Positions 44,042 to 50,406 of a DNA stretch of 64,000 nt are shown in pieces. A model generated the notes under the pieces. It had not been told where the DNA came from. It saw nothing but the letters and a program-made list of their open reading frames with translations, and did not search any database. A program made the position numbers and the translations under genes. The stretch comes from a virus. The stretch covers positions 1-64,000 of IMG/VR virus record IMGVR_UViG_3300047160_007939; one strand, given 5' to 3'. Each line of letters begins with the position of its first letter. Position 1 is the first letter of the stretch.

Positions 44042-45097
44042 TCAAACCAGCACTACTTTGGTGTCTACCCCCATTGTAGCGACAGTCTGCATAGCAGTCA
44101 ACCACGGCTCGATGAGGTCCACGAGCTGCCCGGCAAGAGCCTCGCGTCCCAGCTTCAGGCAGTCGTTCCAATCCATCCCCTCGGGCGGAGACAGGCGCAT
44201 CAGCTCGCAGCCGTGCTCCCGCAGCTCCGTACCCCAGCGGTAACCGGCCACGTTCCCCGCCGAGATGCCGCGCCGGTCAGGTCGGTCGTTGTCACTGGCT
44301 ACCAATACAGGCTGATGGGCCAGCTTCTCTCCCACCCACTCCGCGAGGTGGCAGCCCATCGCGGCAATGGCCGGGTAGCCGGCTGCCGCAAGCGAGAGCG
44401 CGTCGATGGGTCCTTCCACGAGGATGGTCGGTTTACAGCTCCACGCCTGGACCGCAGAGAAGACGCCCAGGCGGGCTTCACCCCTGGTTCGGGTCTTCGG
44501 GTACTCCCCGTCGAAGTAGCGGCCCTGCACGGCCACCAGGACGCCTTCCCGGTCGCGGATGGGAAAGAGCACGGCAGGCCGGCCATACCAGTCGGGATGA
44601 TAGCGAACGCCCGATGGCTCACAGTCTCCAACCATCAGCCCCCGCCGGATGAGATAGGCTTCGCCTTCGGTTCCGGCTAGGTGGACTACCTGCCGGAGCT
44701 TCTTGCGCCAGTCATCGCTCTTCTGGTGCGGTTCTCTCGTAGGAGACGGCTCGCTTTGCCCGTTCGGTTCTCTCGGCAGCAACGGCTCGCTCATTGAGCG
44801 CGGTTCTCTTGTACCTCTCGGCTCGGGCGGAGCGTCGTCATCGGTCAGGTACGTATCCGGCCTGGGCCTTCGCTGCCGGCGCGGACGAAAGACGCGGCTG
44901 TGCCAGTCCTGCCCGTCGAGGCGTCCTTTCGTGTGGCAGCGGTGGCAGATGTACTCGCCCGTCTCCATCTTCACCGCGAGGGAGCGATGGGCGCTGTCCT
45001 TCCACTTGCTGTCCCCGCAGAACGGGCAGCAGAAGCGCCGCTCGTACTTCTGGAGCGGGGCGTGCGGGTCGTAGGCTTCCAGCTCTTCGATTGTCAC
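44042..45097 (-). CDS. DNA primase (Zn finger + TOPRIM)
   Basis: CPFCGD..CHRC zinc finger; LVEGPIDALS and DND TOPRIM motifs. Confidence 0.8.
   Translation of the reverse strand: MTIEELEAYDPHAPLQKYERRFCCPFCGDSKWKDSAHRSLAVKMETGEYICHRCHTKGRLDGQDWHSRVFRPRRQRRPRPDTYLTDDDAPPEPRGTREPRSMSEPLLPREPNGQSEPSPTREPHQKSDDWRKKLRQVVHLAGTEGEAYLIRRGLMVGDCEPSGVRYHPDWYGRPAVLFPIRDREGVLVAVQGRYFDGEYPKTRTRGEARLGVFSAVQAWSCKPTILVEGPIDALSLAAAGYPAIAAMGCHLAEWVGEKLAHQPVLVASDNDRPDRRGISAGNVAGYRWGTELREHGCELMRLSPPEGMDWNDCLKLGREALAGQLVDLIEPWLTAMQTVATMGVDTKVVLV
44711..44827 (-). repeat. TIGR-like dual-repeat array (3 x 36 nt) inside primase linker
   Basis: + strand CGGTTCTCT / CGGCTCGCT alternating every 18 nt with unique 9-nt spacers. 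Confidence 0.8.
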
Positions 45098-49851: not shown

Positions 49852-49924
49852 TGGGCGCGGCGGGGGTCGAACCCGCACACTACAGCTTAAAAGGCTGTTG
49901 CTCTACCATTCGAGCTACGCGCCC
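49852..49924 (-). tRNA. tRNA-Lys(UUU)
   Basis: Full cloverleaf: GGGCGCG/CGCGCCC acceptor, ACAGC-CTTTTAA-GCTGT, TTCGA loop; no encoded CCA. Confidence 0.95.
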
Positions 49925-49985
49925 TCAAAAGAAGGCAGCCATCGTCGCGCGTAACGAGCTGCCGCCACGGCTCCGGCTGCCTCCA

Positions 49986-50058
49986 CGGTGATGGCGAGGA
50001 TCGAACTCGCACCTCCTGCTCGACAGGCAGGCGTCCACAGCCAGTAGACCACACCACC
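49986..50058 (-). tRNA. tRNA-Asp(GUC)
   Basis: GGTGGTG/CATCACC acceptor, CCTGC-CTGTCGA-GCAGG, TTCGA loop. Confidence 0.9.
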
Positions 50059-50120
50059 ACGAGGCTCCGTTACCCGTCGTCTGCCGTGCCACGGAGCGCA
50101 CAACCCGGCAGTTGAAACGA

Positions 50121-50192
50121 TGGGCCAGGGTGGAATTGAACCACCGACCACCTGTTCATCAGACAGGCACGCGACCGTCGCGCCGCTGGCCC
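50121..50192 (-). tRNA. tRNA-Ile(GAU), atypical (C8, G37)
   Basis: GGGCCAG/CTGGCCC acceptor, CCTGT-CTGATGA-ACAGG, TTCAA loop. Confidence 0.8.
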
Positions 50193-50200
50193 GTAGTAGA

Positions 50201-50330
50201 GGATGGGGCTGGCTACGAGCAGGATGGTTCCAGCCCGGCTCCTGCATTGCGCCGGTACAGTCCGCTTTGTCTTTCGCCCTGGTTAGCTAGGCCGAAGCGA
50301 AGTATCAACCCTCGCTGCACCGCATCCCCC
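50201..50330 (-). ncRNA. candidate structured RNA within tRNA cluster
   Basis: Closing stem GGATG/CATCC, four internal hairpins, complementary loops GCAGGA / TCCTGC. Confidence 0.45.
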
Positions 50331-50333
50331 ACA

Positions 50334-50406
50334 CTGCCGAGGCTGGGGTCGAACCAGCTCACTCCCGCTTAACAGCGCAGCGCCTTTCCAGTTAGGCCAC
50401 TCGGCA
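50334..50406 (-). tRNA. tRNA-Asn(GUU), distorted anticodon arm
   Basis: TGCCGAG/CTCGGCA acceptor, G73, CTGTTAA loop but anticodon stem lacks one base; TTCGA loop. Confidence 0.7.

Follow-up and report, generated by a model that had tools for sequence, protein, structure and literature searches.

The TIGR-Tas systems were described in 2025, and the published accounts drawn on here name the origin of their arrays, array growth and the role of the systems in phages as open questions (Faure et al., 2025, Science, PMC12045711; Xu et al., 2026, bioRxiv 10.64898/2026.09.09.750476). In the dual-repeat TIGR-TasA type, for example FpTIGR of Flavonifractor plautii, two distinct repeats of 8–12 nt, termed edge and loop, alternate with 9-nt spacers to give a unit of 36 nt (Faure et al., 2025). 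The repeats start with a box D and end with a box C motif (UG...CCA in TasR arrays); loop repeats are rich in A, while one extra base pair is a feature of edge repeats. Truncated terminal edge repeats are the normal ends of working arrays. Such arrays flank a gene for a nuclease-less Nop-type Tas protein and can be phage-borne, and TasA proteins behave in assays as RNA-guided, reversible transcriptional repressors (Xu et al., 2026). Here, a repeat array found in a soil phage (IMG/VR record IMGVR_UViG_3300047160_007939) is compared with these systems. It lies at 44714–44827, minus strand, inside the DNA primase gene. The stretch analysed, termed the window, is the first 64 kb of this viral record, which is 119,514 bp long and has direct terminal repeats. 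The repeat is best explained, with reasonable confidence, as a complete three-unit dual-repeat TIGR array of the phage's own TIGR-TasA system, situated in the primase linker.

The locus shares with the described dual-repeat systems the alternating repeats with common start and end motifs, the 9-nt spacers, the 36-nt unit, the truncated edges, and a nuclease-less Tas homologue flanked by arrays in a phage genome. It differs in that the array is 21 kb from tas, is in frame within an unrelated and intact replication gene with no terminator of its own, and belongs to a set of ~40 units spread over seven arrays across 24 kb. Intragenic guide RNAs (tigRNAs) have been reported inside tas coding sequences, as in BlTasA and in the TIGRFinder survey (Xu et al., 2026). 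There also the guide units lie in a coding sequence with the frame unbroken, in a disordered stretch between folded parts, and it was proposed that guide maturation is thereby coupled to translation of the host mRNA. Unlike the phage arrays, those reside in tas itself and are mostly of the stem-loop kind ('less frequently dual repeat'), whereas the host gene here is a Toprim primase, and in a second case an XRE regulator gene, and the array is dual-repeat. Arrays inside genes other than tas were not found reported in the published texts, which mention tas-internal guides only (Xu et al., 2026), the supplementary lists of the TIGR papers lying outside this scope. TIGRFinder looks around tas loci, and arrays this distant may be outside its view. 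New features are primase as the host gene, the 21 kb distance from tas, and the existence of close array-less homologues together with an array start on shared linker codons.

Phage lambda offers a parallel. The flexible linker of its O gene, a replication gene, houses the origin iterons, a repeat element that functions at the nucleic acid level and is translated through. Those iterons are bound as double-stranded DNA by the O protein itself. In the soil phage, by contrast, an RNA guide array is indicated by the repeat grammar and by the Tas gene nearby.

The array within the primase gene

On the plus strand, exact copies of CGG[TC]TC[TG]CT are found at 44729, 44747, 44765, 44783 and 44801. 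The spacing of these five copies is exactly 18 nt, and CGGTTCTCT and CGGCTCGCT alternate. The row ends in a degenerate copy at 44819–44827 and a half copy at 44714–44718. The coding strand is the minus strand, and on it the order from 44827 to 44714 is cccGAGCCG-9-AGAGAACCG-9-AGCGAGCCG-9-AGAGAACCG-9-AGCGAGCCG-9-AGAGAACCG-9-AGCGA. The region 44714–44827 parses into exactly three 36-nt dual-repeat units, in agreement with a preliminary description of this DNA, which had placed three 36-nt units in the primase linker between the Zn finger and the TOPRIM domain. The unit consists of the edge repeat AGCGAGCCG, a 9-nt spacer, the loop repeat AGAGAACCG and a second 9-nt spacer, and all five inner repeats (5/5) match the consensus exactly.

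The three tigRNA units occupy primase codons 91–128. The 5′-truncated edge repeat CCCGAGCCG (44819–44827) encodes Pro91-Glu92-Pro93. Unit 1 (44783–44818) is composed of spacer A AGAGGTACA, the loop repeat AGAGAACCG, spacer B CGCTCAATG and a full edge repeat AGCGAGCCG. Unit 2 (44747–44782) has TTGCTGCCG as spacer A and AACGGGCAA as spacer B on the two sides of its loop repeat, and also closes with a full edge repeat. Unit 3 (44714–44746) carries spacer A TCTCCTACG, the loop repeat and spacer B CACCAGAAG, and terminates in the 3′-truncated edge AGCGA (Ser127-Asp128). All of these are on the minus strand.

In minus-strand orientation, both repeats begin with AG and finish with CCG. Between these ends stand four bases, CGAG in the edge repeat and, in the A-rich loop repeat, AGAA; the edge repeat has one extra possible C-G pair relative to the loop repeat. 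A reading of the plus strand would give a CGG start and a CT end, and such ends do not fit. The box motifs AG...CCG differ in their letters from the UG...CCA of TasR arrays. The properties that define a dual-repeat array, i.e. alternating repeats, 9-nt spacers and a 36-nt unit, extend over the five inner repeats.

Chance occurrence was assessed in two ways. The window has 38 matches to the motif vs 5.83 ± 2.63 expected from 100 dinucleotide-preserving shuffles, the largest count in any shuffle being 11. A scan of the whole genome with the same motif, as the preliminary description had proposed, yields 63 matches on the plus and 10 on the minus strand, with seven chains of at least three motifs at exactly 18 nt. 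When letters were redrawn from the genome's own letter-to-letter transitions (Markov-1), none of 200 shuffles had even two motifs 18 nt apart. The periodic runs are far beyond what chance would give.

The host gene (44042–45097, minus strand) encodes a DNA primase of 351 aa, with a Zn ribbon, the array linker, DUF7146 and Toprim in that order, as determined by Pfam, PHROG and alignment. Toprim_2 is matched at residues 225–314 (E 2.4e-10) and DUF7146 at residues 127–197 (E 2e-6), and the PHROG label is phrog_47 DNA primase (E 8.4e-29). The Zn-ribbon match is weak (residues 14–58, E 0.007, 16.9 bits vs a cut-off of 29.8); the Cys and His columns of this stretch are invariant in the homologue alignment. 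The gene is intact and retains every column that is invariant across 15 aligned sequences, i.e. the primase and 14 homologues. Codons 91–128, filled by the array, represent the whole variable linker from the Zn ribbon to DUF7146.

The array is translated as PEP RGT REP RSM SEP LLP REP NGQ SEP SPT REP HQK SD. In this frame the repeats read AGA GAA CCG and AGC GAG CCG, or REP and SEP, which gives the pattern (R/S)EPxxx. In the XRE gene the frame is one base earlier, and GAG AGA ACC and GAG CGA GCC specify ERT and ERA; this use of two frames had been correctly recognized in the preliminary description. The codons AGA and GAA are each used three times in the primase array. In 39 long open reading frames of the genome, 5.1% of Arg codons are AGA and 25% of Glu codons are GAA. 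Because the same repeats are found in two frames and in five non-coding arrays, and because AGA and GAA are rare, the letters of the array are set by the repeat and not by the protein. These observations also bear on the earlier claim of selection at the nucleic acid level; they support such selection, or at least an origin at that level.

Sister arrays and the TasA homologue

Arrays of the same repeats are seven in number, all on one strand. The earlier count of three arrays with one non-coding member was too low, as the genome scan reveals five that are non-coding. Motifs that are exact or have one mismatch number five in the primase array (44729–44809 in genome coordinates), 20 at 56949–57340, 10 at 61206–61358, 10 at 64455–64645, seven at 66046–66163, eight at 67386–67540 and 14 at 68390–68652. 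All seven are co-oriented with the minus-strand genes, and every confident gene of the region is on the minus strand. The largest array (56949–57367, minus strand) has ~20 repeats, is non-coding, and lies between the stop of a terminase-like gene and the next gene; it has three, seven and six stops in the three frames. The array at 61188–61385 (minus strand) consists of five units and is in frame within a gene for an XRE-type protein with three helix-turn-helix (HTH) domains (60775–62214), where its translation is ER(A/T)xxx. In the primase array and in the XRE array, exactly one frame is open; the five others have stops in all three.

The spacers are all different (80/80 unique over 40 parsed units). 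Their GC content (0.56 for the primase array, 0.57 for the intergenic ones) is lower than that of the genome (0.645). The six spacers of the primase array have nearest Hamming distances of 3–4 to other spacers of the genome, which equals background, and simple duplication of a sister array is therefore not its source. Some repeats of several intergenic arrays have one or two mismatches.

Irregularities of other kinds are found in the sister arrays. A 10-nt edge repeat with one extra base (AGCGGAGCCG or AGCGAAGCCG) is present at 57011, 57212, 64481, 67484, 68488 and 68633, and the intergenic arrays with this variant have some spacers of 10–11 nt; neither of the in-frame arrays has indels of this kind. 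At 57030–57084, in the large intergenic array, three consecutive spacers are identical (tccattggg) and the edge/loop alternation is broken, two full edge repeats being flanked by an edge/loop hybrid or by one-mismatch repeats. This looks like a local 18-nt duplication within the array. The same array begins directly after the stop of an open reading frame of 1087 aa (57354–60617, minus strand), which has a weak match to a terminase large subunit (phrog_17415, E 5.4e-6) and a weak match to an intein splicing domain (E 1.5e-5, below the Pfam cut-off).

An open reading frame of 388 aa (66168–67334, minus strand), termed tasA, is flanked by the arrays at 66046–66190 and 67386–67567. At the sequence level its product matches TasR of PDB 9MTY, a TasR complex according to its paper, with E 2.6e-10 in two stretches that begin past the TasR nuclease part. 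The match to TasH has E 5.1e-5 and that to IS621 E 0.014. An AlphaFold 2 (AF2) model based on a 69-sequence alignment is all-helical, with a predicted local distance difference test score (pLDDT) of 91.6; a model from the single sequence had a pLDDT of 44.6 and was of no use. In a fold search of the PDB with the former, TasH and TasR chains take all of the first ten places (E 1.4e-5 to 1.2e-3), and the next best are IS621-type recombinases with E above 0.1. Pfam finds Transposase_20 only (E 2.5e-4) and no nuclease domain. By sequence and predicted fold, the 388-aa protein is classified as a nuclease-less Tas homologue, TasA.

In dual-repeat Tas proteins, a Tyr/His dyad in a C-terminal loop, Y289/H296 in SpTasH, is stated to cut the edge repeat (Xu et al., 2026). 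Residues Y352 and H359 of the phage TasA are seven residues apart, the same spacing as in SpTasH, and in the AF2 model are on a loop after the last long helix. H359 is invariant in 69/69 family members; position 352 is Y in 57/69 and F in 12/69.

The protein has relatives of 31–46% identity on IMG/VR contigs, and these are accompanied by 36-nt arrays that share the edge repeat but differ in the loop repeat, with GAG...GCCG kept on both repeats. The exact edge-N9-loop pair is found in 56 viral stretches, 33 of which have at least two matches. The TasA family is large, with 1,529 proteins at E <= 1e-5 among the 8,000 candidates scored. Next to tasA are two further genes. An N6/N4 DNA methylase gene (PF01555, E 8e-38; 67536–68444, minus strand) lies directly upstream, with an array between, and a second open reading frame, weakly methylase-like, is downstream.

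Because the arrays have this grammar and a TasA-like gene is flanked by two of them, the system is identified as a member of a known family, dual-repeat TIGR-TasA. A Tas protein is thus encoded together with the arrays. Adjacency to tas is seen for the two sister arrays and not for the primase array, and is read here as a habit of the described loci and not as part of the TIGR definition. That the repeat in the primase linker is TIGR array DNA can be held with little doubt.

Origin of the primase array

A search for primase homologues found 222 at E <= 0.001, and 14 of the best 20 were aligned with the query. The (R/S)EP repeat is present in none of these 14 (0/14), nor in the metagenome contig L006, and none of these keeps the peptide without the DNA motif, the pattern that the preliminary description had named as a refutation. 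Linker length varies widely among the homologues, and their linkers are also Pro/Glu-rich. The nearest relatives are P0004 (64.9% identical) and L006 (68.2%). Both have short linkers between shared anchors, DDAPPEP-GKEPEPKPVLTVY-DGW in P0004 and EDAPPEL-GEEPKPQLTVY-EGW in L006. The tree has the topology (window,(L006,P0004)), supported at 100/99, and P0005 (96/90), likewise array-less, branches next. The sequence comparison makes a single gain of the array on the branch of the window the most parsimonious history, simpler than a gain followed by loss; a loss on the L006/P0004 sister branch is the less parsimonious alternative.

The 5′-truncated edge repeat of the array coincides with linker codons common to the nearest homologues: the DNA reads GCT CCG CCC GAG CCG in the window vs GCG CCG CCC GAG CTT in L006, and the residues are PEP in P0004 and PEL (CCC GAG CTT) in L006. 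GAGCCG is the 3′ half of the edge repeat. Perhaps the array was seeded at this half-repeat. The comparison with homologues does not show expansion of the array. The earlier proposal that the array can seed and expand in tolerant protein linkers is supported in part, by a parsimonious gain in this lineage and a linker of variable length; in-frame arrays are rare in the repeat family. Counted as arrays with an open frame that spans them and continues for at least 40 codons on both sides, they are 2/7 in this phage vs 2/108 (arrays of at least three motifs) in the 56 viral stretches with the same repeat pair, where both of the two are doubtful as genes and where fragments near contig ends can hide cases. 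In the relatives L002–L004, 11/13 arrays have no spanning frame of at least 90 codons, and the other two share one 194-codon frame that is largely made of array.

Other searches for relatives of the primase gave no matches: tblastn against 50,697 phage records, searches of viral_contigs and genome_contigs, and tblastn against the 56 same-repeat stretches. Apparent 'primase' matches in Tas-bearing viral records proved to be translations of arrays (query residues ~73–143), not primases, and were rejected.

The exact 351-aa protein is recorded on 19 + 10 contigs, and the primase-array stretch is present in 24 soil runs, among which no RNA run was listed. Contigs of runs X2 and X13 cover the array with no differences, and run X2 has 45 differences in 20 kb. 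The only listed difference within an array in these 20 kb is at 57075, where X2 has T for A in the first base of a spacer of the large intergenic array. Run X2 also lacks 12 letters at 62184, in a period-12 tandem repeat (62180–62209) of the 5′ part of the XRE gene, an in-frame length polymorphism. A contig of run X22 matches the 5′ part of the primase gene down to 44862 and then has more than 255 unlike letters at the place of the linker and array; it may represent a relative with a different linker.

Proposed function and alternative explanations

In the proposed mechanism, the same DNA would probably serve both as protein code and as precursor of guide RNAs, a reading based on the sequence. 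The array would be transcribed within the primase mRNA, the sense strand having repeats oriented to fit the box D...box C grammar. A scan for sigma-70-like promoters and terminators found none flanking the array on the minus strand and, since the array thus has neither of its own, it is most simply read as co-transcribed with the primase gene. TasA dimers would bind the repeats, and the C-terminal Tyr/His loop (Y352/H359) would cut in the edge repeats to release 36-nt tigRNAs. Each tigRNA might then guide TasA to an 18-bp DNA site, spacer A base-pairing with one of its strands and spacer B with the other, and the bound TasA would block transcription or replication, as other TasA proteins do. 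Uncut mRNA would be translated, and the array would then form a 38-residue (R/S)EPxxx stretch within a linker tolerant of changes in length. Such an array could sit, grow or shrink in a linker with the gene kept unbroken, because its period is 36 nt, or 12 codons, and its repeats are free of stops in two of the three frames. That the primase transcript yields working guides is given slightly better than an even chance. The guides are probably aimed at host or competitor DNA.

A number of observations weigh against the interpretation as a working array of a TIGR-TasA system. The distance from the primase array to tasA is 21.3 kb, whereas described arrays flank tas or sit inside it. Unit 2 alone has full edge repeats on both sides. 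The array end has no terminator, as expected for a position inside an open reading frame. A target search with the 40 units used two geometries, the reverse complement of spacer A followed by spacer B, and spacer B followed by the reverse complement of spacer A, both being our own reading of the paper's text. It found no site in the phage's own genome at <=2 mismatches and 10 at three vs 7.7 ± 3.0 in 20 spacer shuffles. In 129.5 kb of other loci there were 19 matches at <=3 mismatches vs 5–14 in five shuffles, and nothing beyond chance; one place at two mismatches was seen four times in overlapping loci. As only 0.26 differences are expected in 117 nt at the divergence of run X2, the clean array shows presence, not constraint, and the perfect repeats could reflect a recent arrival instead of selection. 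With respect to the Tas protein, the Pfam Nop model (PF01798) has no match in the whole genome, and the Pfam and PHROG labels of the 388-aa protein are 'transposase', which speaks against membership in TIGR-Tas. The role of Y352/H359 as the processing dyad is suggestive only and is based on spacing and conservation, not on residue-level alignment to SpTasH, the match at that level being to TasR only.

Several of these points would also be expected if the array were an inert passenger, that is, TIGR array DNA that entered the primase linker, for example through template switching or recombination at GAGCCG, which encodes Glu-Pro, and is tolerated there as a floppy peptide with no working guides. 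Any cutting of the mRNA would then be a cost and not a function. The degenerate terminal edges, which leave at most one unit with two full edges, the remote and terminator-less location, the lack of targets above chance in the genome and the 129.5 kb of loci, the rarity of in-frame arrays (2/108) and population data that are powerless to show constraint all agree with such an origin. It is nevertheless judged unlikely. The inner repeats of the primase array are all exact, whereas several intergenic arrays have repeats with one or two mismatches; its six spacers are unique and no other array of the genome could be their source, which excludes a simple copy; truncated terminal edges are normal for working arrays (Faure et al., 2025); and the same phage keeps a second in-frame array, the five units of the XRE gene.

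The other two alternatives assign the repeats to double-stranded DNA or to the peptide. Short direct repeats with a fixed 18-bp spacing, in several arrays of the replication/early region, one of them in the linker of a replication gene and one in the gene of a multi-HTH protein, recall iterons, or centromere or operator sites, bound for example by the XRE protein with its three HTH domains. This was the initial reading, and was dropped as the grammar and the Tas homologue fit TIGR. Protein-binding sites are now considered very unlikely, given the alternating two-repeat 36-nt grammar with truncated edges, the location of the Tas homologue between two arrays, the same array type beside tas in distant Tas relatives, the co-orientation of all arrays with transcription, and 9-nt gaps that are all different. 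Selection on (R/S)EPxxx as a low-complexity linker with a function in the primase would be in keeping with the open frame, the intact gene and the Pro/Glu-rich linkers of homologues, and yet is the least credible: the XRE gene reads the same DNA in the other frame, five further arrays are non-coding, the rare codons AGA and GAA are each used three times, and the peptide repeat is missing from all of the aligned homologues and from L006.

A broader scheme of two linked ideas can be considered, in which guide production within the gene is a replication switch and the primase linker also records the birth of an array. This scheme is doubtful and is put forward tentatively. As TasA accumulates, it would cut the edge repeats of the primase and XRE mRNAs and separate the Zn-finger part from the catalytic part, so that guide maturation and primase shut-down would be one event that times the replication programme of the phage. 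With respect to array birth, the array begins exactly at ancestral Pro-Glu-Pro codons and has three units with spacers that are absent elsewhere in the genome. TIGR arrays might therefore be seeded at chance half-repeats and be filled with new spacer pairs by a further mechanism; how spacers are gained is named as an open question in both TIGR papers (Faure et al., 2025; Xu et al., 2026).

The main interest of the locus lies in how TIGR arrays arise and in a possible coupling of guide maturation to an essential gene. An array at this site shows that tas need not be close by, and surveys centred on tas will thus undercount guides. The 12-codon period lets arrays live in protein linkers, and the close array-less homologues offer a natural before/after pair for array birth. 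A coupling of guide maturation to the host mRNA has been raised for guides inside tas (Xu et al., 2026). If TasA does cut the repeats in mRNA, an essential replication gene would also come under the control of guide maturation, with cutting of the edge repeats severing the primase mRNA between its Zn-finger and catalytic parts.

Two minor features of the region are added. An Rfam scan gave no match to the arrays and detected only four tRNA genes (RF00005, 38.5–70.1 bits); these are consecutive, at 49852–50406 on the minus strand, with the replication genes on one side and the arrays on the other. At 44073–44101 on the minus strand there is a match to a sigma-70-like promoter (TTGACT-17-TACAAT, 10/12), inside the 3′ end of the primase gene and upstream of the next gene.

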